Below are positions 12 to 58,819 of a stretch of 64,000 nucleotides of DNA, piece after piece. A program made the translations under genes and the position numbers. Within the stretch, counting starts at the first letter, position 1; every line of letters starts with the position of its first letter. Under the pieces are notes generated by a model, which was not told where the DNA came from, did not search any database, and saw only the letters and a program-made list of their open reading frames with translations. Source of the stretch: Anaerolineales bacterium (GTDB lineage Bacteria; Chloroflexota; Anaerolineae; Anaerolineales; UBA4823). The stretch covers positions 128,445 to 192,444 of the forward strand of contig PQAL01000002.1 in NCBI GenBank assembly GCA_003105035.1, given 5' to 3'.

Positions 12-605
12 CTATTTCCCTGCCGCCAGGCGGGCTTCCAGTTTTAGCCTGACCGCAGGCCATTCCTGCGGGATCAGGCTGTAAATCACCGAATCACGGA
101 TGTGCCCGTCAGGGAGAATCATATGGTTGCGTAAGACTCCCTCTTTAACCGCTCCCAGTTTTTCGATGGCGCGCTGTGAGCGCAGGTTGCGTAGGTCGGT
201 CTTCAGCCACACACGGATGCATCCCAATTCCTCGAAGGCGTGCCTGAGCAGCAAATACTTGCATTCGGTATTAACCAGTGTCCCCTGGTAATCCAACCCG
301 TACCAGGTGCCGCCGATTTCGAGAGAACGGTCTTCTATCTCAATATGCAAGTAACGCGTGCAACCCACGGCTGCACCACTCGCCTGGTAAATGACCGTGA
401 AAGGCAAGTCAGTACCCTGGGCTTGCTCCTTAAGGATATCCTGTACCCACTCAGTCAGCTGTTCGACAGTCTCAACCTTCCCATAACGCATGTATCTCCA
501 GATCTTGGGTTCCAGGCCAACCTTCGCCAGACTTGGAATATGCTTCAGGCTGAGGGGTTCAAGCCGCACGGATTTACCAATGAGGGTGGTTGGTTCAATT
601 TGCAT
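12..605 (-). CDS. GNAT family N-acetyltransferase (RimJ/RimL-like)
   Basis: Complete 197-aa ORF. The translation has the GNAT acetyl-CoA-binding region ('NLRSQRAIEKLGAVKEGVLR') and the overall RimJ/RimL-like layout. Confidence 0.8.
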   Translation of the reverse strand: MQIEPTTLIGKSVRLEPLSLKHIPSLAKVGLEPKIWRYMRYGKVETVEQLTEWVQDILKEQAQGTDLPFTVIYQASGAAVGCTRYLHIEIEDRSLEIGGTWYGLDYQGTLVNTECKYLLLRHAFEELGCIRVWLKTDLRNLRSQRAIEKLGAVKEGVLRNHMILPDGHIRDSVIYSLIPQEWPAVRLKLEARLAAGK

Positions 606-806
606 TTTTAATTCTCACTGGTTCTATGGATGTACCGCCTTGGATATCTGCGGTTCACCGCCGAAGTTTTGCGATCTATTTCAGAAAATCAAGGTCACCC
701 GGCGATTAGCCCAGGTATTATATATAACCAGGATGCGCGCATCTTCAGGCTCAAGTGAATTTCCTTGTTGAGACTGGCCTACCAGTTCTTGTCAAGCAGG
801 TGGAGA

Positions 807-2099
<1,293 letters not shown>

Positions 2100-3062
2100 C
2101 TATGATTTCAACAACTTGTCCAGCTGCCCATGATCAGTGAAGTGCTTCCGAAATCGGGTGACAAATTCCGTGAGCGTGTAGCAATGCCCTTGTGTACCTT
2201 CACATTCCAGGCAGTAGGTGGCAGCCAGGGTCCCCATCTGCCCGCAGATCTGCGGGTCGAGCCCATGGCTGAACCCGGTCAGGAAGCCTCCCCGGTAAGC
2301 ATCCCCCACCCCTGTGGGATCGACGATTTTCTCCGGCGGTACCACAGGGATGAAATATTGGTCATCCCTGGAATATACCGTTGAGCCTTTGCTGCCTGCA
2401 GTCACCACCATGAATTGAAGGTGTTTCATCAGGTCACTGGCTGACATTCCGGTCATCTTTAGCACCAGACCGAACTCATAATCGTTAACGAACAGTGCCA
2501 GGGCTCCTTCTATACCCATTCGCAGCTCGCCCCCGGTCAATCTGACAATCTGCTGGCTGGGGTCGTAAAGGTAAGGGATACCCAGCTCACGGCATTCAGC
2601 CACGTGCTGTTTCATCGCCTCAGGGTCATTGGGGCTGATGACCACCAGATCTGGTAGTGGTCCTTGCCAACTGCGAAAGCTCAGCTGTGCGCCATAACTC
2701 ATCGCTCCTGGATAGAAGCTGGCGATCTGGTTGTTTGCCCGGTCGGTGTTGCAAAAGAATGAGGCCGTTACTTCACCAGGGATAACTTTCATCAGTGTGG
2801 TGTCAACGCCATTGCTCTCCAACCATTTCCGGTATTCCTCGAAATCCTCACCCACGGTAGCCATGATGTGCGGTCGCTCTCCCAATAAGGCCAGCGTATA
2901 GGCAATGTTGGGGGCGATGCCTCCGCGCCGTTTTCGATAAGAATCAACCAGGAAGCTAAGGCTGATTGAATCCAACTTGTCGGGAAGGAAATGATCCCGG
3001 AAGTATCCTGGAAAGGTCATCAAATAATCGAATGCTACCGAGCCGGTAAGGATGATATTCAT
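2100..3062 (-). CDS. PfkB-family carbohydrate/nucleoside kinase (probable adenosine kinase)
   Basis: The ORF track extends to 3149, but family-like sequence starts at the internal ATG 3062 ('MNIILTGSVAFDYLMTF'). PfkB C-terminal signature 'DPTGVGDAYRGGF' is present. The stop lies 33 nt upstream of ahcY. The adenosine kinase role is inferred from context. Confidence 0.8.
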   Translation of the reverse strand: MNIILTGSVAFDYLMTFPGYFRDHFLPDKLDSISLSFLVDSYRKRRGGIAPNIAYTLALLGERPHIMATVGEDFEEYRKWLESNGVDTTLMKVIPGEVTASFFCNTDRANNQIASFYPGAMSYGAQLSFRSWQGPLPDLVVISPNDPEAMKQHVAECRELGIPYLYDPSQQIVRLTGGELRMGIEGALALFVNDYEFGLVLKMTGMSASDLMKHLQFMVVTAGSKGSTVYSRDDQYFIPVVPPEKIVDPTGVGDAYRGGFLTGFSHGLDPQICGQMGTLAATYCLECEGTQGHCYTLTEFVTRFRKHFTDHGQLDKLLKS

Positions 3063-3949: not shown

Positions 3950-4202
3950 ATTCATCATATCGCGTTGACCGGGACGAGTATCTGGCAGGTATCCGTCAGA
4001 GATGGGAGACCAGTGGCTGAAAATCTCCCTCGGTAAGTACCAGAGAAAACCTCCCGCGAGCGTAAACCCCAAAGACGCAGGTCCAGTAGGGTAAACGGCT
4101 GACCCCGTTATCGGTCTAAAGAGATGTGCCAGATAATCTGGCATAAATCTGGGTGGAACCGCGTGAGACATCTCTCGCCCCAGTTGGGCGAGAGTTTTTT
4201 TT
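3950..4202 (+). promoter_or_regulatory. T-box leader (tRNA-Thr-responsive riboswitch) of thrS
   Basis: T-box core 'GGGTGGAACCGCG' at 4151-4163 lies directly upstream of the terminator hairpin. The Stem-I-like region (3961-4058) has AGAGA/AGTA motifs. A candidate ACC (Thr) specifier sits at 4049-4051. The downstream gene is thrS. Confidence 0.8.
4172..4202 (+). terminator. Intrinsic terminator of the T-box leader
   Basis: Stem 'ctctcgccc' (4172-4180) pairs with 'gggcgagag' (4186-4194), followed by a run of 8 T. Confidence 0.8.
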
Positions 4203-47815: not shown

Positions 47816-49909
47816 ATGCGTGAGTTCTTCTACCCTAATAGTGTTGCTGTCATCGGCGTTTCCGATAAACCCGATAACCTCGGCCGTAACATCGTCGGGA
47901 ACCTGGTCGAATTCGGCTTTGGCGGGATTGTCTACCCGGTCGGTCCCTCAGGCGGTTTCGTGCAAACCCACCGCATTTACCGCTCGATCTCCGACATCCC
48001 CGACCATATCGACCTGGCAGTGATCCTGACACCCGCCCGGACGGTCCCTCTGCTCCTCGAAGAATGCGGGCAAAAGGGCGTACGTTGGGCGATCATTGAG
48101 ACAGCCGGGTTCAGGGAGTACGGTGAGGAAGGCCTTAAGCTGGAAGAGCAGATCGTGCAGGTAGCCCGGCGCTACGGCATCCGCTTCATTGGCCCGAACT
48201 GCGTGGGGGTCATCAACGTCGATAATGGCTTCAGCGTGCCATTCCTGCGTTTGAAGAAACCATCCGAAGCCGGAGATGTTTCATTAATATCACAGAGTGG
48301 TGGGGTAGGTTTCTCCGTGCTTAACCTGATGACAAATGAGGGGATTGCCCCGAATAAGTTTATCTCGGTCGGCAACATGCTGGATGTGTCTGCTGAAGAT
48401 ATCCTGGAGTACATGCTGGAGGATCCCGGCACCAAGGTTATCTTTTTATATTTGGAAAGCCTGCGTGATGGCAGGCGCCTGATGGATATTGCCTGTCGTT
48501 CGGCGAAACCTATCCTGGTGTTCAAGTCCAATATCGGCAGCCTGGGCAAGGTCATCGCGGCTTCCCATACCGCAGCCCTATCTAGCGATGATAAAGTTGC
48601 TGAGGCCGCCTTTAAACAGGCCGATATCGTGCGTGTCCATGATGCTACCAGCCTGCTCAATAACCTGAAAGCCCTGCGTCTGCCTCCTATGCGTGGTAAA
48701 AAACTGGCGATCATCTCACGCTCAGGTGGGCACGCCGTGGTGGCTGCTGATTCGAGCGAGCTATCCGGCTTCGAGCTTGCCGATCTTCCCCGCTCCTTCT
48801 TGGAAGAGATCGAGAAGCATTTTCGCGCCTCGGTGATCAAGCTGACCAACCCGGTAGACCTGGGCGATTTATTTGATTGGGATGTGTACGCCCAAATCCT
48901 GGAAGGGGCTCTCAAGTTATCGAATGTGGATGGGGTAGTGTTTCTGCATACTGCTTCTGAACGGGAGATCGACGCCAGCCGCAGGCTGCTGGAACGGGTC
49001 ATAGCCTTAGGCAAACAATATGATAAGCCGGTCGCCTATTATGTTTCCACTTCAGCCCAGGAGGTTAACTACCTGCGCCAGACCTACGCCTTCCCCATCT
49101 TCACCGCTGTGGTTGAGACCATCCGCGCCCTGGAGATGAGTTACCGCCATTACAGCCGCATGCAGGAGATCCGCAGCGCTGAACAAACCCCTGAATTCGA
49201 GGTGGATCATGAAGCCGTGCGAAGGATGATTAACCAGGCCAGAGAAGAGGGACGCGACCTGCTGCTTTCTGAGTCGATGGAGGTGCTGGAACATTATGGC
49301 ATCCCCACTGCGGTTGGCGTGCATGCGTCCACCGTACAAGAAGCACGCCAGGCAGCTGAGAAAATGGGTTACCCCGTGGCGATCAAGGTTATTTCAGAGC
49401 AAATTTCCCATAAGTCTGATGTGGGTGGTGTGCAGCTTAACCTGCGCAACGGTCCAGCGGTGGAAGAGGCCTTTGAAGACATGTTGCGCCGTATCCATGC
49501 CTCCTACCCCGATGCCAGATTGGATGGGGTGCTGGTGCAGCCCATGGTGACGGGTGGACAGGAGCTGATCCTGGGTGGTCGACAGGACCCCAATTTTGGT
49601 CCCGTGGTGCTGATCGGCCTGGGCGGTATCTTCGTTGAAGTACTCGAGGAAGTCTCACTGCGGGTAGCCCCCATCACCCACCGCGAGGCCATGGAGATGA
49701 TCGATGAGCTGCGGGGTGCTCCCATCCTCAAGGGAGCCCGCGGCCATAAGCCTTCCGACTTGCTGGCGGTTGGTGAAGCTTTGCTACGCCTTTCTCAATT
49801 GTTGATCGACTTCCCCGAGATTGGCGAGCTGGATATCAACCCCCTGCGTGTCTTCCAGGATAAGGATGGCTGCCGGGCACTGGATGCCCGTATCATGCTG
49901 AGGTCCTGA
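47816..49909 (+). CDS. ADP-forming acetyl/acyl-CoA synthetase (fused alpha-beta, NDP-forming)
   Basis: ATG 47816 follows SD 'aggagg'. N-terminal CoA-binding 'VAVIGVSDKPDNLG', succinyl-CoA-synthetase-like ligase domains, and a C-terminal ATP-grasp ('YPVAIKVISEQISHKSDVGGV'). Confidence 0.85.
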   Translation: MREFFYPNSVAVIGVSDKPDNLGRNIVGNLVEFGFGGIVYPVGPSGGFVQTHRIYRSISDIPDHIDLAVILTPARTVPLLLEECGQKGVRWAIIETAGFREYGEEGLKLEEQIVQVARRYGIRFIGPNCVGVINVDNGFSVPFLRLKKPSEAGDVSLISQSGGVGFSVLNLMTNEGIAPNKFISVGNMLDVSAEDILEYMLEDPGTKVIFLYLESLRDGRRLMDIACRSAKPILVFKSNIGSLGKVIAASHTAALSSDDKVAEAAFKQADIVRVHDATSLLNNLKALRLPPMRGKKLAIISRSGGHAVVAADSSELSGFELADLPRSFLEEIEKHFRASVIKLTNPVDLGDLFDWDVYAQILEGALKLSNVDGVVFLHTASEREIDASRRLLERVIALGKQYDKPVAYYVSTSAQEVNYLRQTYAFPIFTAVVETIRALEMSYRHYSRMQEIRSAEQTPEFEVDHEAVRRMINQAREEGRDLLLSESMEVLEHYGIPTAVGVHASTVQEARQAAEKMGYPVAIKVISEQISHKSDVGGVQLNLRNGPAVEEAFEDMLRRIHASYPDARLDGVLVQPMVTGGQELILGGRQDPNFGPVVLIGLGGIFVEVLEEVSLRVAPITHREAMEMIDELRGAPILKGARGHKPSDLLAVGEALLRLSQLLIDFPEIGELDINPLRVFQDKDGCRALDARIMLRS

Positions 49910-50585
49910 GCCGGTAACCAACTCCCGGCTCGGTAATAATGAAGTGTGGTCGGGTCGGGTCGGGCTCGATTTTTCTCCGCAGGTTGCTCATATTTACCCT
50001 TAGCAGATGAGCTTCATTAACATAGGCACTTCCCCACACTTCATGAAGTAGCTGGTGATGGGTGAGCACCCGTCCCGCGTTTTGCACCAGGATGCGCAGC
50101 AAATCATATTCAGTAGGTGTGAGCATTACTTCTACGCCATTAACATGCACTTGCCTGCGAGTCAGATCTACCTTCAAACTATCCGATTCGAAGACTGGTT
50201 CGGTCGCTGCCTGGCTGGAATGGCGGAGTGCAGCCCGCATGCGTGCCAGCAGCTCCCCACTGCTGAAGGGCTTGGTCAGATAGTCGTCTGCTCCGGCATC
50301 CAGGGCATTGATTTTATCAATTTCTTGCTCGCGCACCGAGAGAATGATGATCGGGATGTGTGTCCACTGGCGTAATAAGCGAGTGACTTCCACTCCATCG
50401 ATGTCGGGTAATCCCAGGTCGAGGACAATCAGATCTGGCCGGTCGCTGACGGTTTTATCCAGGGCATCTTTACCGCTGCTTGCCTCATAAACCGTGTAGC
50501 CCTGAGCATTCAAGGCTGCGTGCAGGTAGCGCCGGATGGCACGCTCATCATCCACCACTAGTACCCGCAAACCAATTTCGTTCAT
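49893..50585 (-). CDS. kdpE: KdpE response regulator (OmpR family)
   Basis: REC domain ('VLVVDDE', 'DLIVLDLGLPDIDG') plus a winged helix. It overlaps kdpD by 4 nt. Confidence 0.9.
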   Translation of the reverse strand: MNEIGLRVLVVDDERAIRRYLHAALNAQGYTVYEASSGKDALDKTVSDRPDLIVLDLGLPDIDGVEVTRLLRQWTHIPIIILSVREQEIDKINALDAGADDYLTKPFSSGELLARMRAALRHSSQAATEPVFESDSLKVDLTRRQVHVNGVEVMLTPTEYDLLRILVQNAGRVLTHHQLLHEVWGSAYVNEAHLLRVNMSNLRRKIEPDPTRPHFIITEPGVGYRLRTSA

Positions 50586-53269
50586 TTCTTACCCTTCCAT
50601 TCCAGTGGCACACACACTGTGAAAACTGACCCTCCACCACGGCGGTTTTCCGCCATGATGCTGCCCCCGTGTGCTTCTACGATCCCCTTACTTATCGAAA
50701 GCCCCAGGCCAGTACCGCTGACGTTATCGGGTCGTTGCACCCGATAAAACTTGTCAAAAATGCGTTCGAGGTCTTCCTGCGGGATTCCCTCTCCGTGGTC
50801 AGCGATCTTTATCTCCAATCCCTGCTTTGTTTCATGAGCATGGACCTCGATGGGCTTATCCGGGGGTGAGTACTTCAGGGCATTATCAATGATATTCACC
50901 AGTACCCGGCTGAACAGCACAAAATCCAATGGCACCGGGGCTAGTTGTTCAGGGATATCTACCTTCACCTGGCGATCCTTGAGTCGCGCTCCGATTTGTT
51001 CCAAGGCTGACCCAACCAGTTCCTGAATATCACAAGCCTCGCGCCGAAGCTGGATTGGACCTGCTTCCAATCGGGTGATATCCAACAGGTTGCCCACCAG
51101 GCGGTTCAAACGGTCCGCCTCTTCACGTGCTGTCTCAATCAAGCTACGGCTCACATCTTCATCCAGGGCAGGGCCGACTTCTTCGAGACTGCTCAAAGCC
51201 CCTGTGATCGATACCAGTGGAGTTCTCAGGTCATGCGAGATGGAATTAAGCAACGCGGACTGTAATTTCTCGGTAGCTTCCATCAGTTCGGCCTGGTGGG
51301 CTTGTTCAACCAGCTGAGCACCTTCGATCGCCAAGGCTACCTGGTTAGTAAACGCTTCCAAGATACGCCGTTGGTCAGGATTCAAGTAGGAGCTGTTATT
51401 CAATGGTTTAATCCCCAATACACCGATCACACCCTGGGTTGTCTTAAGCGGTTGGTAAAGCATGGAAGCATCTGGCAGCGTATCGGTTCCGCGGCCTGCC
51501 TGCTGACGATGCTCGTAAGCCCATACGGCGACTGCTAATTCATTCTCTGTTACCTCCAGGCCCTGGGTACTTTTGTACAGGTATAAATCCCCAGCCTGGG
51601 GCAGGAAAATGGCTACATCTCGGCTGTAGGTTTGCCCGATATGGTCAACTACAGTTTTCGTAACAGCCTCTAAACCTACCGCGGCTGTCAGGTCATGACC
51701 TAAATCATACAAGGCCGCTGTTTGGGCCTCACGCCGCTGAGCAGCATCGGCTTGCTCCCGAACCTGGGCAGTTAAATAGCTGATGACTAGGCTCACCGCA
51801 AGTAAGCCAAAGAAAGTCAGGATGTATTCTGTGTCTGAAACAGCCAGGGTGAACTGGGGTGGAACGAAGAAATAATCAAAGGCCAGCACGCTCAAGATTG
51901 AGGTCATAATTGCTGGACCCCGCCCAAGAAATAGGGCTGCCACCACAGTTGCCAGTAAGTAAATGACGATTAGGTTGGTCGGTGAAATTAACGGGGCAAT
52001 CAGGTAGCCTATGGCAGTCGCCACCAACATCATGGCGAGGCCCCAGGCATACCGGCGTAACGGATGATGGGGCTGCCAGATGTGTTCTGCTTGGCTCTCT
52101 GGCGATTTTTCTGTACATTTCTCCTTGCTATTCACTGAGATCACGTCGATTGGACCGCTCCTGCGGATTAACTGGTCACCGATTGGCCTGCGGAACAGGT
52201 CAATCAGCTTCGACCGGTGTGATTTACCGATGATGATCTTCGTGATGTTCTGGTTCCGGGCATAGTTTGTCACAGTTTCGACAACTGAATGACCGGGTAT
52301 CGTGAGCGACCTGGCACCTAATTCCTCGGCTAGCCGCAGCATATGGTCAACCTTGTCACGCTGGCTGGCAGGCATACGCACATGCTGTGGGGTTTCAACG
52401 AATATCGCATACCACTCCGCTTTCATCTCATCGGCCAGACGGCGTGTAGTTCTAATGAGCCGCTCACTGCCAATCCCAGGACTGACGCATACCAGCAAGC
52501 GTTCACCGGCAGGCCACGGCCCAGGGATAGAACGCAGCCCCATATAATCGAGCATCTGGTTATCGACCCGTTCTGCAGCCCGCCGCATGGTTAGCTCACG
52601 TAGCGCAGTCAGATTACCCTGTCGAAAGAATTTTTCAATAGCCCGTTCAGCCTGTTCGGGGATGTAAACTTTTCCTTCCTTAAGGCGGTGTAACAGCTCG
52701 TCCGTGGGCAGGTCGACCAGCTCGATATCGGTCACCTCATCGATCACCCGGTCAGGAATGGTTTCTTGGACTTTTACGCCAGTGATCTGGGCGACTACAT
52801 CATTCAAGCTCTCCAGGTGCTGGATGTTAAGGGTTGTATACACATTAATACCCACCTCCAGCAGCTCTTCCACATCCTGGTATCGTTTCGCGTGCCTGGA
52901 GCCCGGAGCATTTGTGTGCGCCAGCTCGTCCACCAGCACCAAGTTGGGCTTTCGGGCAAGAACCTGATCGATATCCAGCTCGTGAAGCTTTACATTTCGG
53001 TAGTTTATGATTTTTGCAGGGACGATCTCTAGGCCGCGCAGCATGTTCTCTGTTTCAGCTCGTTGATGAGTCTCAACATATCCCACCACAACATCCACGC
53101 CTTCTGCTTTACGTTGGTGAGCAGCCTCCAGCATGGCATAGGTTTTTCCCACACCTGCCGCATAGCCAAAGAAGATCTTCAGATGGCCGCGTTTCTTTTG
53201 TTTGGCTTCTGATTGAACACGCGCCAGTAGCTCGTCTGGATCTGGTCGGATTTCAGCAAAAGCTCCCAC
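50582..53269 (-). CDS. kdpD: KdpD sensor histidine kinase
   Basis: 895 aa. N-terminal KdpD/Usp ('GYAAGVGKTYAML'), 4 TM, GAF, HisKA 'SHDLRTPL', and HATPase 'GTGLGLSI'. Confidence 0.95.
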   Translation of the reverse strand: MGAFAEIRPDPDELLARVQSEAKQKKRGHLKIFFGYAAGVGKTYAMLEAAHQRKAEGVDVVVGYVETHQRAETENMLRGLEIVPAKIINYRNVKLHELDIDQVLARKPNLVLVDELAHTNAPGSRHAKRYQDVEELLEVGINVYTTLNIQHLESLNDVVAQITGVKVQETIPDRVIDEVTDIELVDLPTDELLHRLKEGKVYIPEQAERAIEKFFRQGNLTALRELTMRRAAERVDNQMLDYMGLRSIPGPWPAGERLLVCVSPGIGSERLIRTTRRLADEMKAEWYAIFVETPQHVRMPASQRDKVDHMLRLAEELGARSLTIPGHSVVETVTNYARNQNITKIIIGKSHRSKLIDLFRRPIGDQLIRRSGPIDVISVNSKEKCTEKSPESQAEHIWQPHHPLRRYAWGLAMMLVATAIGYLIAPLISPTNLIVIYLLATVVAALFLGRGPAIMTSILSVLAFDYFFVPPQFTLAVSDTEYILTFFGLLAVSLVISYLTAQVREQADAAQRREAQTAALYDLGHDLTAAVGLEAVTKTVVDHIGQTYSRDVAIFLPQAGDLYLYKSTQGLEVTENELAVAVWAYEHRQQAGRGTDTLPDASMLYQPLKTTQGVIGVLGIKPLNNSSYLNPDQRRILEAFTNQVALAIEGAQLVEQAHQAELMEATEKLQSALLNSISHDLRTPLVSITGALSSLEEVGPALDEDVSRSLIETAREEADRLNRLVGNLLDITRLEAGPIQLRREACDIQELVGSALEQIGARLKDRQVKVDIPEQLAPVPLDFVLFSRVLVNIIDNALKYSPPDKPIEVHAHETKQGLEIKIADHGEGIPQEDLERIFDKFYRVQRPDNVSGTGLGLSISKGIVEAHGGSIMAENRRGGGSVFTVCVPLEWKGKK

Positions 53270-53284
53270 AATGATCTCCCCGTC

Positions 53285-53857
53285 TTATTTTATCGCATCC
53301 AGCGCAAGATTAAGCTCAAGCACATTGACTCGTGGCTCGCCCAGGATGCCGAAGGTCCGCCCTTGTGTATATTTTTCGACCAGGGCTTGAACCAGCTGCT
53401 GGCTTAGGCCGCGTAACCTGGCGACTCTGGCCACCTGGTAATTCGTTGCCGCCACGCTAATATCGGGGTCGAGACCACTGCCTGAAGAAGTGACCAGGTC
53501 CACTGGGATGGGCGCCGTGTTGGTAGGATCTGCTGCTTTTAAGGCGGCAATCCGAGCTTCTACTTCGCTGGTTAATGCCGGGTTGGTGGGTCCCAGGTTA
53601 GATCCCGCCGAGGCTGCTGCATTATACGGGTAGGGTGACGTGGCTGATAGGCGTCCCCAAAAGTAACGCGGGTCGTCGAACTGTTGTCCGATCAGCGCTG
53701 AGCCGACCGCCTCACCATTCTGGAAGATTAAGCTGCCGTTCGCCTGCCTGGGAAAGATAACCTGGGCAATCGAGGTGATCACCAGGGGGTAAATGACCCC
53801 GGTGATCAAGCTGAAAACCGCCAAAGACACCAACGCCGGTCTAAGATAAGCGCGCAT
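53285..53857 (-). CDS. kdpC: Potassium-transporting ATPase subunit C
   Basis: 190 aa. N-terminal TM with 'GSNLGPTNP' and '[10 protein letters not shown]' KdpC blocks. Confidence 0.9.
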
Positions 53858-53874: not shown

Positions 53875-54615
53875 TTACCCGGCGTCAGCGTTTGCCAGCA
53901 CTTCGGCTTCAGCCAGCCTGGATCGTTCGAGCGCCTGAGCTGCCTGGATGGTGATGTTGTGCAGCAGGCGGCTACCTTCTTCCGGCAGCCACCCGTTTCC
54001 TTTCCAGATACGAATCTCACCTACCAGGCCGGGAAAAGCCAGGATAGGCAAAATTCGATCAGGCATTCCGCTCGCCTCACCTGCTGGTGGAGCTTTTGCC
54101 ATCAGCGATCGTTGCGACCCACTACACTCGACACATACTTCCACTAGTTGAGATTGAAACATGAATTGGATGTTATTGGCCAGTGCATGTACAACCGTTT
54201 CCTGGGTGCGCAGACCAGATAAAGCTGATGATAGCTCATACATGAACATCGCCTCTCGCTGGCTAGTTTGGGCCTTAGATAAGCCAGTCTGGATCCTCGC
54301 GATGACTACGATCGAAACTACCAGGAAGATTGCCAGCACCAGCCAGCCTTCCAGCCTGCCCACAGCAAAAGTATAGAATGGCGGAATGAAGAAGAAGTCA
54401 AATAGCAAAGCAGCAGTAACAGCCGCACACACCCCCGCTCCCTGGCCCCACTTGGCAGCGCACCAGCCTATCGGTACCAGATATAACAGCGCAATCACTG
54501 CCTCCCCGAGGGTTTCTCGCCCGATAAATAATAATGGAATCGTCGTTAGAGCTACGGTTAAAAAAGCGAAGATGCAGTTTATGAATGCGGTTGATGAAAA
54601 TATTTTTTTCTTCAT
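53875..54615 (-). CDS. Kinase-less KdpD-like membrane sensor module (DUF4118-type 4-TM + GAF-like domain)
   Basis: 246 aa, SD 'gagagg'. It aligns by eye to the TM/GAF part of the KdpD in this window: '[16 protein letters not shown]' with 'LAFDYFFVPPQFTLAV', and '[16 protein letters not shown]' with 'NQVALAIEGAQLVEQAHQAE'. There is no HisKA or ATPase domain. Confidence 0.75.
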
Positions 54616-54672
54616 AGGTTTCCTCTCAACATAACTCTGTCGTTACTTAATTTAAAACTTCCTTACTCAGTA

Positions 54673-56820
54673 TCATGCCAGATGTAACAACACCAGCAGC
54701 ATATCGATCATCTTGATCCCAATGAATGGAGCGATTAAACCACCCAGACCATAGATTAGCAGGTTGTCGCGCAATAACTGGGCCGCCCCTTTGGGGCGAT
54801 ACGGAACCCCTTTGAGAGCCAGTGGAACAAGGGCGATGATAATGAGTGCATTAAAGATCACTGCCGATAAGATGGCGCTTTCGGGTGTAGAAAGACGCAT
54901 TAAATTTAAGGCTCCAAGCTGTGGGTAGGTGCTGGCAAACGCGGCGGGAATGATAGTGAAATACTTTGAGACATCATTTGAGATACTGAACGTAGTGAGG
55001 GATCCGCGTGTCATCAGCAGCTGCTTGCCGATTTCCACGATCTCGATCAGTTTTGTCGGGTTGCTGTCCAGGTCGACCATATTGGCGGCTTCTCGGGCAG
55101 GTTGGGTACCCGTATTCATTGCCACCGCCACATCCGCCTGAGCCAGTGCCGGCGCATCATTGGTACCATCACCGGTCATGGCTACCAATCGCCCACCAGA
55201 TTGGTATTCACGGATTAGCTTGAGTTTGGTTTCTGGGGTAGCCTGCGCAAGAAAATCGTCTACCCCAGCCTCAGCTGCAATAGCGGCTGCGGTAAGTGGG
55301 TTGTCACCGGTAATCATTACAGTCTTGATCCCCATTTTTCGCAGGTGTGCGAAACGATCCCTGATTCCGCCTTTGACGATGTCTTTTAGGTGGATTACCC
55401 CCCAGGCTTCACCATTGCATGCCACAACCAGTGGTGTGCCACCCGACTTGGCAATCGATTCAACGACGTGCTCAAGCTCTGCTGGGATCGTATTCCCTTG
55501 TTGCCTGAGATAAGCCAGCATTGCGTCGGGTGCGCCTTTACGAATCGACGTGTCATCCATATCGACGCCGCTCATCCTTGTTTGAGCAGTGAAAGGAATG
55601 AAGTGTGCTCCAGATGGAGCATCCGGTCCAGAGCCAACCGTCCGACCACGCAAGCCAAATTTTTCCTTGGCGAGCACAACGATGCTGCGTCCTTCCGGAG
55701 TTTCATCTGCCAATGATGAGAGCTGGGCAACTTCTGCAAGTTCTTCTGGTTTAATCTTGCCTACAGGGATAAACTCAACCGCTTGGCGGTTGCCAAGTGT
55801 GATCGTTCCGGTCTTGTCTAGAAGAAGCACATCTACGTCACCAGCTGCTTCGACAGCTCGACCAGACATTGCGATCACATTGTGTTGGATCATCCGATCC
55901 ATCCCGGCGATGCCAATGGCAGATAATAATCCGCCGATGGTGGTAGGGATCAAACACACGAGCAGGGCGACCAACACGGTAATCGTGATGGGAGTACCAT
56001 GGCTTTCGGTTTGCACGCTGTAGAGCGAAAATGGTAATAAAGTGATACAAACCACAAGAAATATGAGTGTAAACGCTGCTAGCAGGATGTTTAGGGCGAT
56101 CTCATTGGGTGTCTTTTGCCTTTTTGCGCCTTCGATCAGGTTGATCATGCGATCGAGGAATCCTTCACCTGGGTTCGCGGTTACGCGTATAACCAACCAG
56201 TCCGATAGCAGGCGTGTACCTCCGGTCACTGCGCTGCGGTCACCGCCAGATTCGCGGATGACTGGGGCGCTTTCTCCAGTCACCGCGCTTTCGTCCACCG
56301 AGGCAATTCCATCAATGATTTCACCATCCACAGGGATGATTTCTCCAGCGGTAACCAAGAGATGATCATCCTTGTGAAGGGCTGTCGAAGGTACTGTATC
56401 GACTGCCGCCTCACGGTTGGGGGTGCGGAGTTTTTTTGCCATGGTTTCACGTTGGGTTTTGCGTAATGCTTCTGCCTGGGCTTTTCCACGGCCTTCAGCT
56501 ACTGCCTCTGAAAAATTAGCAAACAGCACCGTGAACCATAACCAGAGCGTTACCGTACCAATGAATCCAGCAGGTGCTTCACCATGACCAGTCATAGCTT
56601 GAACCAATAAGATTGTTGTTAGTGAGCTGCCAACTTCCACAACCATCATGACCGGGTTGCGTACCATGTGGCGTGGATCCAGTTTTTTAAATGCATCGAT
56701 CACCGCCCGTTCGTATAGCTGGCGCCGCTTCGATAGTGACTTTGAAGAGTGTACTACCATTCTAAGACCTGTTCTGGTTCTTGCCATACTTATTGAGCAT
56801 GATCCCTCGATTGTCACCAA
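54673..56820 (-). CDS. kdpB: Potassium-transporting P-type ATPase subunit B
   Basis: '[10 protein letters not shown]', '[10 protein letters not shown]' and '[15 protein letters not shown]'. The start is ambiguous: TTG 56820, GTG 56817 (GTGA overlap with the kdpA stop), ATG 56787 or ATG 56760. Confidence 0.95.
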
Positions 56821-58613
56821 AGCATTAAATGCTCAACAATTGGTCCCAATGCCAGGGCTGGGAAAAAGTTCAATGCACCCACAAGGATAACAACAGCGCT
56901 CAACCAGACGATGAATAATGGTGTGTGGGTTGGGAGGGTGCCAGCACTCTCGGGTGACTTTTTCTTCTTTACCAGCGATCCAGCTAATGCCAATGTCGGA
57001 ACAGCCAGGAAGAACCGGCCAATCAGCATTTCAATCCCACCAGTAATGTTATAAAACGGATTATTTGCCGCAATTCCTGCAAACGCGCTACCATTATTAT
57101 TCCCTTGCGAGGTATAGGCGTACAGGATTTCGCTGAAACCATGTGGGCCCGGATTGAGTATTGCAGCTTTACCTGGATTGGTAAGTACGGCGATTGCGGT
57201 AAATGTCAGCACGCTGATCGGCATGATCAAGATGAGCAGCGCCGCCATTTTCATCTCGTAGGTTTCGATCTTCTTTCCCAGGTACTCAGGCGTACGGCCT
57301 ACCATCAATCCCGCCACAAATACCGCTACGATCACAAAAACCAACATCCCATACAAGCCCGAGCCGACCCCGCCAAAAGATACTTCGCCCAACATCATCA
57401 TCCACATCATCGCCAGACCCCCCAGCGGAGTGTATGAATCATGCATGCTGTTTACCGAACCGTTTGATGCAGCCGTGGTTGCCGTTGCCCACAGGGCAGA
57501 ATTGACCGTCCCAAAACGGACTTCCTTGCCTTCCATGTTGCCACCGGGATTCGTTGTACTGCTCGTTTGGTCTGCCCCTAGGCTGGCTAAAGCCGGGTTG
57601 CCAGTCTGTTCAGCCGCGAAGGCAAGCCCAAGCCCTATCCACAGTAATACCAGCATGGCTGCCAGGATTGCCCAGCCCTGACGTGTAGATCCAACCATAT
57701 AGCCGAAGGTGTATGTAAGTGCTGCTGGAATGAGCAGGATGGATAGCATTTCCACAAAATTAGACAGGGGTGTTGGGTTTTCAAACGGATGGGTGGAGTT
57801 GGCATTAAAAAATCCGCCCCCATTGGTTCCCAGTTCTTTGATGGCGATCTGTGAGGCAGCCGGACCAACAGCCAATAGCTGGGTGGTCTGAGTGATAGTT
57901 TCTGTTAGCGAATTACCGCTGGCATCGGTGACGAGGTTACCCTTGGCATCCAGGATGGGCTGTTGAGATGTGGATGGTTGGACAAGCGAGACTTGTTTAT
58001 ACGGCGAGAATGTCTGTACCACCCCCTGGCTCACCAGGAATATAGCCAGGATCATCGCCATCGGCAGTAAGATGTATAACACCCCGCGCGTCATGTCGAC
58101 CCAGAAGTTACCAATCCTAGTGGTTTGTTTGCGGGTCAATGAGCGGATAAACGCCATCAGTACCGCCATGCCAGCCGCAGCTGACATAAAGTTTTGGACG
58201 GTTAACCCAACCATTTGGGGTAGATAGCTCAGTGTGTTTTCTCCGCCGTAAGCTTGCCAATTTGTGTTGGTGACGAAACTGATCGCTGTATTGAATGAAA
58301 GGTCTGGAGAGACTGCTCCAAGCTTCTGGGGGTTTAGTGGAAGCAGCCCCTGCAGTCGTTGGAGCAGGTATAGGGCCACGAAGCTGACCAGGCTGAAGAC
58401 CAGCAATGAGATGGCATAGACCTTCCAATCCATCTCGTCTTCCTCCCTGATCCCGAAAATTCGGTACAGGAATCTTTCCAGCGGGCGAAGGGGGCTATGG
58501 AGAATGGTGCTATCACCTTGATAAACCCGTGCCATGTATAAGCCTAGGGGTTTGACCAGCATGATCAGGATGATGAAAAAGATCGTCACTTGCAAAAAAC
58601 TATTAAATGTCAT
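56814..58613 (-). CDS. kdpA: Potassium-transporting ATPase subunit A
   Basis: 599-aa polytopic protein with KdpA sequence throughout ('[10 protein letters not shown]', 'GTNGGGFF'). Confidence 0.95.
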
Positions 58614-58632: not shown

Positions 58633-58725
58633 TCAGTCGAACCACTCCGGTTTTAAGAGTGCGAGTAGTAAGTAGACCAATAGAGAAATCGAGATCAATC
58701 CCGTTAGGATATAGAAGATATCCAT
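58633..58725 (-). CDS. kdpF: Potassium-transporting ATPase subunit F (30 aa, below the ORF-track cutoff)
   Basis: Hand translation gives MDIFYILTGLISISLLVYLLLALLKPEWFD. The C-terminal 'VYLLxALLKPExF' is the KdpF signature. It sits 19 nt upstream of kdpA. Confidence 0.75.
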   Translation of the reverse strand: MDIFYILTGLISISLLVYLLLALLKPEWFD

Positions 58726-58726
58726 A

Positions 58727-58819
58727 TCACTCATCCATCAGGCCCTGGCATAGAGCGATCAAGCCCCAGCAGGCGATAAATACTACGGCAATCATCGCAA
58801 GGTAAAGTAGGTCCAACAT
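58727..58819 (-). CDS. Additional 30-aa hydrophobic peptide opening the kdp operon
   Basis: Hand translation gives MLDLLYLAMIAVVFIACWGLIALCQGLMDE. SD 'aggag' lies 6 nt upstream. Its stop is 1 nt before the kdpF ATG (TGATATG). Confidence 0.5.
   Translation of the reverse strand: MLDLLYLAMIAVVFIACWGLIALCQGLMDE

Follow-up and report, generated by a model that had tools for sequence, protein, structure and literature searches.

A 64,000-nucleotide stretch of the genome of an Anaerolineales bacterium (assembly GCA_003105035.1, contig PQAL01000002.1, positions 128,445 to 192,444; hereafter the window) carries a kdp operon in which an additional gene, here given the working name X, encodes the transmembrane (TM) and GAF sensor core of a KdpD-type histidine kinase without any kinase domain. 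X is maintained by purifying selection, is linked to the kdp operon as a whole and is probably a non-catalytic regulator that is made together with the pump. The KdpD/KdpE–KdpFABC system is a model for bacterial ion homeostasis, in which the site and the mode of K+ sensing by KdpD are unsettled. A stand-alone TM–GAF module that is under selection and is encoded with the pump implies that the sensor core has a role apart from phosphotransfer.

The preliminary description of this DNA, which was made by reading the letters and their open reading frames (ORFs), had reported a 246-residue gene with its own Shine–Dalgarno sequence between kdpB and kdpC. The ORF was found exactly as given, with an ATG start and the motif GAGAGGA 5 nt upstream of it. 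The features of X are as follows.

53875–54615, minus strand: gene X, kinase-less KdpD-type sensor module consisting of DUF4118, a short GAF and a C-terminal helix (ORF list, Pfam, NCBIfam, homologues, AlphaFold).
54621–54627, minus strand: Shine–Dalgarno-like GAGAGGA, 5 nt on the 5' side of the ATG of X (direct sequence reading).
54268–54573, minus strand: DUF4118 four-helix transmembrane domain, residues 15–116 of X (Pfam, profile match to 2ksf, model helices).
53881–54267, minus strand: juxtamembrane helix, shortened GAF-like domain and C-terminal helix, residues 117–245 of X (profile, Foldseek, alignment).

DUF4118 (PF13493) was the sole Pfam domain detected in X (E = 1.8e-18; 66.7 bits against a cut-off of 28.4). 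The NCBIfam KdpD model (NF007793/PRK10490) matched X only at model positions 402–548 (E = 3.2e-12), and X failed the cut-off for a whole KdpD protein with 45.3 bits against a curated value of 1123, the window KdpD itself scoring 882.9 bits. By eye, the TM and cytoplasmic parts of X had been judged to be alignable with the DUF4118/GAF segment of KdpD, and BLASTP bore this out, with residues 41–236 of X aligned to residues 433–655 of the window KdpD (E = 9e-12, 22% identity) over a span that includes both of the sequence blocks originally quoted. In the hidden Markov model searches that had been proposed as a check, DUF4118 was significant. The Pfam models GAF, GAF_2 and GAF_3 gave no match to X at E <= 1, and support for the GAF domain came instead from a family profile. 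This profile, built from 21 diverse relatives of X and searched against PDB sequences, matched the nuclear magnetic resonance entry for the TM domain of Escherichia coli KdpD (2ksf, E = 4.3e-11) and the sequence of the E. coli KdpD GAF crystal structure (4qpr/4y2f, E = 3.1e-6), the latter as two separate stretches with the central part of the domain left out. By alignment, the GAF of X is about 20 residues shorter than that of KdpD.

The remaining parts of a KdpD are missing, as had been claimed. KdpD_N (PF02702) and Usp gave no Pfam match in X at E <= 1, and neither HisKA, with the phospho-acceptor histidine, nor HATPase_c was matched by Pfam or NCBIfam. In the alignment, the C-terminus of X falls roughly 15–20 residues short of the H-box of the kinases (SxSHxLRTP). 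Since it has no phosphotransfer domain, X is unable to phosphorylate anything. NF038185, the model for non-kinase sensors composed of KdpD_N and Usp, did not match X, and it matched residues 10–379 of the window KdpD (E = 6e-114).

An AlphaFold model of X as a single chain (59-sequence alignment, mean pLDDT 84.4, pTM 0.69) places the start of the first membrane helix seven residues after the start of the protein. The membrane helices comprise residues 8–31, 38–56, 58–76 and 88 onward, and the fourth extends into a long juxtamembrane helix that reaches residue 132; a helix (138–153), four strands (157–204) and a 30-residue C-terminal helix (216–245) follow. The GAF is described as reduced because only four strands are present in the model. 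When this model and an earlier, weaker one were compared with the PDB using Foldseek, the top matches for both were GAF domains (probability 1.00, TM-scores normalized to the target of about 0.55–0.58), and the GAF of KdpD was the match with the highest sequence identity (23–25%). With its GAF in reduced form, X is the TM–GAF sensor core of a kinase of the KdpD type, and the suggestion of a stand-alone, kinase-less DUF4118–GAF module holds on the DUF4118 match, the GAF profile match and the fold comparison.

Homologues of X were sought among 5.8 billion proteins, giving 1599 matches at E <= 1e-3. The best 120 of these 1599 are all 240–270 residues long, are 67–100% identical to X and contain DUF4118 only; the records call them 'DUF4118 domain-containing protein [Anaerolineae bacterium]' or, mistakenly, 'KdpD histidine kinase', a label that is corrected here because these proteins cannot be kinases. 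In an exhaustive search of 1.84 billion cluster representatives, 44 clusters passed E <= 1e-30 and 278 passed E <= 1e-10. Many of these matches are full-length relatives of about 240–260 residues with 30–57% identity to X, and no KdpD of about 900 residues occurs among the top 150. Pairwise nonsynonymous divergence (dN) of X is 0.18–0.36 with synonymous divergence (dS) saturated, dN/dS is 0.06–0.11 where computable, and many positions are invariant across the family. Across orthologous operons, X and the TM–GAF part of KdpD have diverged to a similar extent. The family is large and counts hundreds of homologues from metagenomes at 30–80% identity, and purifying selection acts on X.

The few named records with X homologues are metagenome-assembled genomes (MAGs) of Anaerolineae, Chloroflexi and Chloroflexia, together with one contig binned as Candidatus Edwardsbacteria; a genome scan for close relatives, the patterns of which were too specific, found three MAGs. 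The Edwardsbacteria contig (locus L092; GCA_035506015.1, DATJQG010000304.1, 3.3 kb) has the order kdpC-X-kdpD, and either the family may reach beyond Chloroflexota or this short contig may have been mis-binned. No plasmid-borne relatives were found. Full-text searches of open-access papers and bioRxiv turned up no account of a stand-alone DUF4118–GAF gene in kdp operons, and X is apparently an undescribed, widespread accessory kdp gene of an uncultured lineage.

In the window, kdpF-A-B-X-C-D-E form a compact operon on the minus strand, with gaps of 57 bp between kdpB and X and 17 bp between X and kdpC. The genes other than X are as follows.

58633–58734, minus strand: kdpF, 33 residues (gene call, weak Potass_KdpF match, translation).
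56814–58613, minus strand: kdpA (Pfam KdpA, E = 2.2e-246).
54673–56760, minus strand: kdpB, 695 residues (Pfam E1-E2_ATPase and Hydrolase, gene call, motifs, translation).
53285–53857, minus strand: kdpC (Pfam KdpC, E = 9.9e-78).
50582–53269, minus strand: kdpD, full length, 895 residues (Pfam domains, NCBIfam KdpD at 882.9 bits, motifs).
49893–50585, minus strand: kdpE, OmpR-type response regulator (ORF list; Response_reg and Trans_reg_C in the gene calls).

Apart from X, the kdp system of the window is canonical. KdpB retains DKTGT as well as TGES, which carries the regulatory serine; an alternative, longer kdpB ORF with a TTG start extends to 56820. KdpD possesses all six canonical domains (KdpD_N, Usp, DUF4118, GAF_3, HisKA and HATPase_c), with a Pfam match to GAF_3 at E = 2.9e-12 and intact Walker motifs. 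A consensus scan of the operon interior returned five promoter-like and six terminator-like sites against 9.0 and 8.7 expected, and it gave no signal above chance for a promoter or terminator belonging to X; a single operon is therefore favoured. An Rfam scan of the window detected no riboswitch at threshold near the operon.

To examine the linkage of X to kdp genes, 94 loci with an X homologue were compared: the window contig, the three MAGs, 80 metagenome contigs at 50–75% identity and several distant members, cited below by locus numbers where necessary. Flanking genes were scored by tblastn with the Kdp proteins of the window. X proved to be kept in related kdp operons, on the strand of the kdp genes, with four kdp gene orders covering 88 of the 94 loci and most of the other six also having a kdp gene nearby. 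With this conservation and the significant model and profile matches, neither of the two outcomes that the preliminary description had named as refuting it was obtained. The slot between kdpB and kdpC is the commonest (49 loci with both flanks and 12 compatible, 61 in total), but it is not fixed: X lies between kdpC and kdpD in 11 loci with 13 more compatible (24), between kdpA and kdpB in two (L085 and L086) and after kdpE in one (L088), and six loci, including L047, L019 and L016, are odd or too short to judge. A subclade that shares only about 37% identity with the X of the window again has the order kdpB-X-kdpC (L087), and linkage to kdp extends to subclades at 30–40% identity. A full-length KdpD is encoded in essentially all loci with sufficient flank, and X is upstream of kdpD in all but a few. 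Because several slots are occupied across the loci, X is linked to the kdp operon as a whole and not to one position in it.

Several loci show further arrangements. A KdpE-like response regulator directly follows X, with no kinase between them, in L043, L045, L047 and L038. L047 carries tandem X paralogues at 43–813 and 895–1641 (256 and 248 residues, both with DUF4118), after which the regulator comes. In L019 (23–568, 595–1356, 1362–1556), kdpC-like sequence is found on both sides of X, which may be a rearrangement or an assembly artefact, and in L016 X is beside a type-II P-type ATPase. In operons with the order kdpA-B-?-C-X, a conserved membrane ORF of 130–135 residues fills the slot between kdpB and kdpC. 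Pfam and NCBIfam give it no match, and it is related neither to X nor to the cyanobacterial gene of that slot. It is located as follows.

L043 5719–6111, L045 2286–2678, L051 5937–6344, L068 776–1183, L083 878–1270: ORF of 130–135 residues between kdpB and kdpC.

In L018, a 519-residue KdpD (876–2435, minus strand) is divergent from kdpA and consists of about 30 residues of KdpD_N followed by DUF4118, GAF_3, HisKA and HATPase; it has its own KdpE-like regulator (151–834, minus strand), and full-length kdpDE are additionally present at the end of the operon.

The preliminary description had related X to the adjacent KdpD. X is indeed of the KdpD type, but it is not derived from that copy. In a neighbour-joining tree of TM–GAF regions, the X family forms one clade, separate from the KdpD proteins of the operons, which adjoins or falls among kinases of about 490 residues with the layout DUF4118–GAF–HisKA–HATPase. 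These kinases, given the working name HK490, are abundant in Anaerolineales. X and HK490 are 33–36% identical over about 230 residues and have in common a shortened GAF and a GEIxxW strand motif, both of which are absent from KdpD in the alignment. Because tree and alignment join X with HK490, and because the two share the short GAF and GEIxxW, the best explanation of these sequences is that X descends from a short DUF4118–GAF–HisKA–HATPase kinase that lost its dimerization and histidine-phosphotransfer (DHp) and catalytic domains. Recent duplication of the neighbouring kdpD was ruled out by the 22% identity, the separate clade and the derived features common to X and HK490. In the loci checked, including those in which X follows kdpC, neither remnants of kinase domains nor a gene for a soluble kinase were found downstream of X.

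All matched KdpD (14) and HK490 (89) proteins have a spacing of 48 residues between the motifs FFxPP and YELS; in X the spacing is 45 or 41, corresponding to an X-specific deletion of three or seven residues in the helix that joins the membrane domain to the GAF. Deletions of these sizes would be tolerable to a coiled-coil seam and fit a paired helix that has been freed from driving a DHp domain. X thus appears to have lost the strict signal-transmission spacing of the kinases while keeping the periodicity of helix pairing.

One 706-kb contig contains both X, in a kdp operon, and an HK490 gene with a response regulator 147 kb away; behind this kinase–regulator pair come an unannotated gene pair, present twice, and a type-II P-type ATPase. 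L094 has its HK490 pair immediately after kdpE. Two further proteins of about 245 residues with DUF4118–GAF, P0156 and P0162, group with HK490 and not with the X clade in the tree, carry the FNYFF motif of the kinases and may be independent kinase-less truncations. The unannotated gene pair is conserved (about 356–377 residues, and a multi-TM protein of about 606–611 residues) and has no Pfam or NCBIfam match. It comes either after HK490 and its regulator, as in the two copies of L089, or after X and a KdpE-like regulator, and it is a candidate for an uncharacterized cation-transport module under a KdpD-like two-component system.

L089 10259–16349, L038 2992–4812, L043 8864–11024, L061 1802–3637: conserved gene pair.

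Two other features of the window were observed. A hydrophobic 30-residue ORF, MLDLLYLAMIAVVFIACWGLIALCQGLMDE, is located directly upstream of kdpF at 58727–58819 (minus strand) and overlaps the kdpF start; a small ORF is likewise called just upstream of kdpF or kdpA in the related operons L090 and L095, and the window ORF may encode a second KdpF-like peptide. Rfam scored just one family above threshold in the window, a T-box leader at 3956–4185 (plus strand; RF00230, 98.6 bits, gathering score 93), which is distant from the kdp operon.

The function preferred for X, held with somewhat less than even confidence, is that it modulates KdpD-family kinases through mixed complexes, as a fixed accessory gene of the kdp operon. 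This reading is preferred because a truncated kinase paralogue acts in such a manner once its catalytic half is lost, and X keeps the parts for pairing and sensing. Transcribed with the pump genes, X would be present in an amount that tracks the induction of kdpFABC. What it retains of a KdpD-type kinase, from the four-helix bundle through the juxtamembrane helix and GAF to the beginning of the signalling helix, would let it join a kinase of the KdpD family in the membrane, whether KdpD itself or an HK490 paralogue. Such mixed complexes would not signal, or would signal differently, and the kinase or phosphatase output would thereby be tied to the extent to which the pump operon is expressed. 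X would then be a feedback or 'connector' regulator of the dominant-negative type, possibly a K+-dependent one through its own TM and GAF domains.

Several points weigh against modulation of a kinase. X has low identity to its presumed partners (22% to KdpD and 33–36% to HK490), and the DHp domain, which X does not have, is the main dimerization element of histidine kinases. Most loci place X among the pump genes and not beside kdpD, which fits a pump subunit at least equally well. Since kdpD belongs to the same operon, X and KdpD may rise together, weakening simple titration. Finally, a GAF ligand or any K+ binding has not been identified even for KdpD (bioRxiv 10.1101/2023.07.05.547876).

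In a more specific version of kinase modulation, which we regard as rather unlikely, X is a connector that is induced by KdpDE together with the pump and pairs through its TM–GAF module with KdpD, with HK490, which would serve a separate set of cation transporters, or with both, providing Kdp feedback together with cross-talk between two K+-related two-component systems. If this were true, X would represent control of a histidine kinase by a domain-loss paralogue, which is apparently undescribed, and would offer a minimal object of 246 residues with which to find where the KdpD family senses K+.

The main alternative, though a doubtful one, is a role for X as a KdpFABC-bound subunit with a regulatory or sensory function, its helices docked on KdpA or KdpB and its GAF reading cytoplasmic K+ or another signal; the GAF would either gate the pump directly or recruit the serine-kinase domain of KdpD to the TGES serine of KdpB. 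That X takes up three slots among the structural genes (kdpA-X-kdpB, kdpB-X-kdpC and kdpC-X-kdpD), in each case ahead of kdpD and with short gaps, suggests that its synthesis keeps pace with that of the pump subunits, and other small genes, the cyanobacterial 90-residue gene and the ORF of 130–135 residues described above, use the slot between kdpB and kdpC. The intact TGES of KdpB and Walker motifs of KdpD also make post-translational control of the pump plausible (PMC11018627). However, no precedent was found in the literature for a DUF4118 or GAF module as a subunit of a P-type ATPase, and a new interface would have to evolve on a truncated kinase. Furthermore, X also occurs after kdpE (L088), beside KdpE-like regulators without kdpD (L043, L045 and L047) and beside another P-type ATPase (L016).

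It is improbable that X is an autonomous sensor with a partner encoded elsewhere, whether a soluble kinase or, with X as a decoy, a GAF-binding regulator of the PtsN type. The four loci in which X is followed by a KdpE-like regulator without a kinase (L043, L045, L047 and L038) mimic a kinase–regulator pair, and the KdpD GAF of Sinorhizobium does bind PtsN, for which it is a docking site (PMC9239096). However, no candidate partner is conserved beside X across the loci, neither a kinase remnant nor a soluble kinase gene follows it, and a full-length KdpD is encoded in essentially all loci long enough to judge.

That X is a functionless, decaying remnant of a duplicated kinase gene, as its truncated architecture and its labelling as KdpD or DUF4118 by pipelines might suggest, is effectively excluded by conservation: intact ORFs of a constant length of about 240–260 residues across hundreds of clusters whose identity falls as low as about 30%, dN/dS of about 0.1 or less, many invariant positions, no kinase remnants downstream and an operon position retained over deep divergence. 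Weakest of all, equivalence of X to the cyanobacterial kdpG or a KdpF-type small subunit, which would rest on the shared slot and on the naming of KdpABGCD in Synechocystis (PMC13099474), is ruled out at the sequence level, because the cyanobacterial slot gene mentioned in the preliminary description, as found between kdpB and kdpC on Trichormus variabilis plasmid A, encodes a 90-residue hydrophobic peptide (annotated as subunit F) without similarity to X (BLASTP E = 0.42), and X is a two-domain protein of 246 residues.

Compared with the sensor core of E. coli KdpD (2ksf and 4qpr/4y2f), X has the same two domains in the same order, and the two share FDxFFxPP in the four-helix DUF4118 bundle and YELS/YDL in the juxtamembrane helix, followed by a GAF fold and the beginning of the signalling helix. 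Unlike KdpD, X has neither the KdpD_N/Usp serine-kinase half nor HisKA/HATPase, its GAF is about 20 residues shorter and the helix from TM4 into the juxtamembrane region bears the three- or seven-residue deletion; to the KdpD of its own operon, X is only 22% identical. KdpB is a substrate of the N-terminal domain of KdpD, which acts as a serine kinase (Silberberg et al. 2024, PMC11018627). In the literature consulted, cyclic di-AMP is bound by the Usp domain of KdpD, which X does not possess, and no pointer to cyclic di-AMP was found at X or at the operon, including any riboswitch at threshold near it.

KdpD architectures have been classified in 5495 species, with recognized classes that include full-length KdpD, KdpD/Usp only, and a split form of KdpD/Usp plus TM/GAF/DHpCA; in Chloroflexota the split form is met most often (15 of 25 species), and the classes listed do not include one with TM/GAF only (PMC11018627). 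Additional variants were disregarded in that 2024 survey where a species had a full-length KdpD, and X is a component that surveys of KdpD architecture would miss. The proposed K+-sensing sites of KdpD are within the TM/GAF part (PMC11018627), and its intracellular K+ site is still unidentified (bioRxiv 10.1101/2023.07.05.547876). As a compact protein that occurs naturally, X lends itself to structural work on K+ sensing and to binding assays.

The HK490 kinases are the nearest relatives of X and occur in the same kind of genome; by layout they may be likened to, but not equated with, the TM/GAF/DHpCA halves of split KdpD. Unlike X, they retain both an ATPase domain and the phospho-acceptor histidine and have a response regulator of their own as partner, and the HK490 examined adjoins other transport genes and not kdp. 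The KdpD-like non-kinase sensors of Deinococcus and cyanobacteria (NF038185) resemble X in being KdpD fragments without histidine-kinase activity that serve Kdp (PMC11018627). They differ from it in being the complementary part, a soluble N-terminal serine-kinase half (KdpD_N and Usp) without TM or GAF.

In the logic proposed for it, X would resemble regulators outside the Kdp system. The small membrane proteins MgrB, SafA and MzrA and the connector PmrD are non-catalytic proteins that are induced by two-component systems and alter the output of sensor kinases by direct contact; their sequences bear no relation to those of the kinases they target. X, as a domain-loss paralogue of the kinase family itself, is closer in principle to the dominant-negative 'microprotein' regulators.

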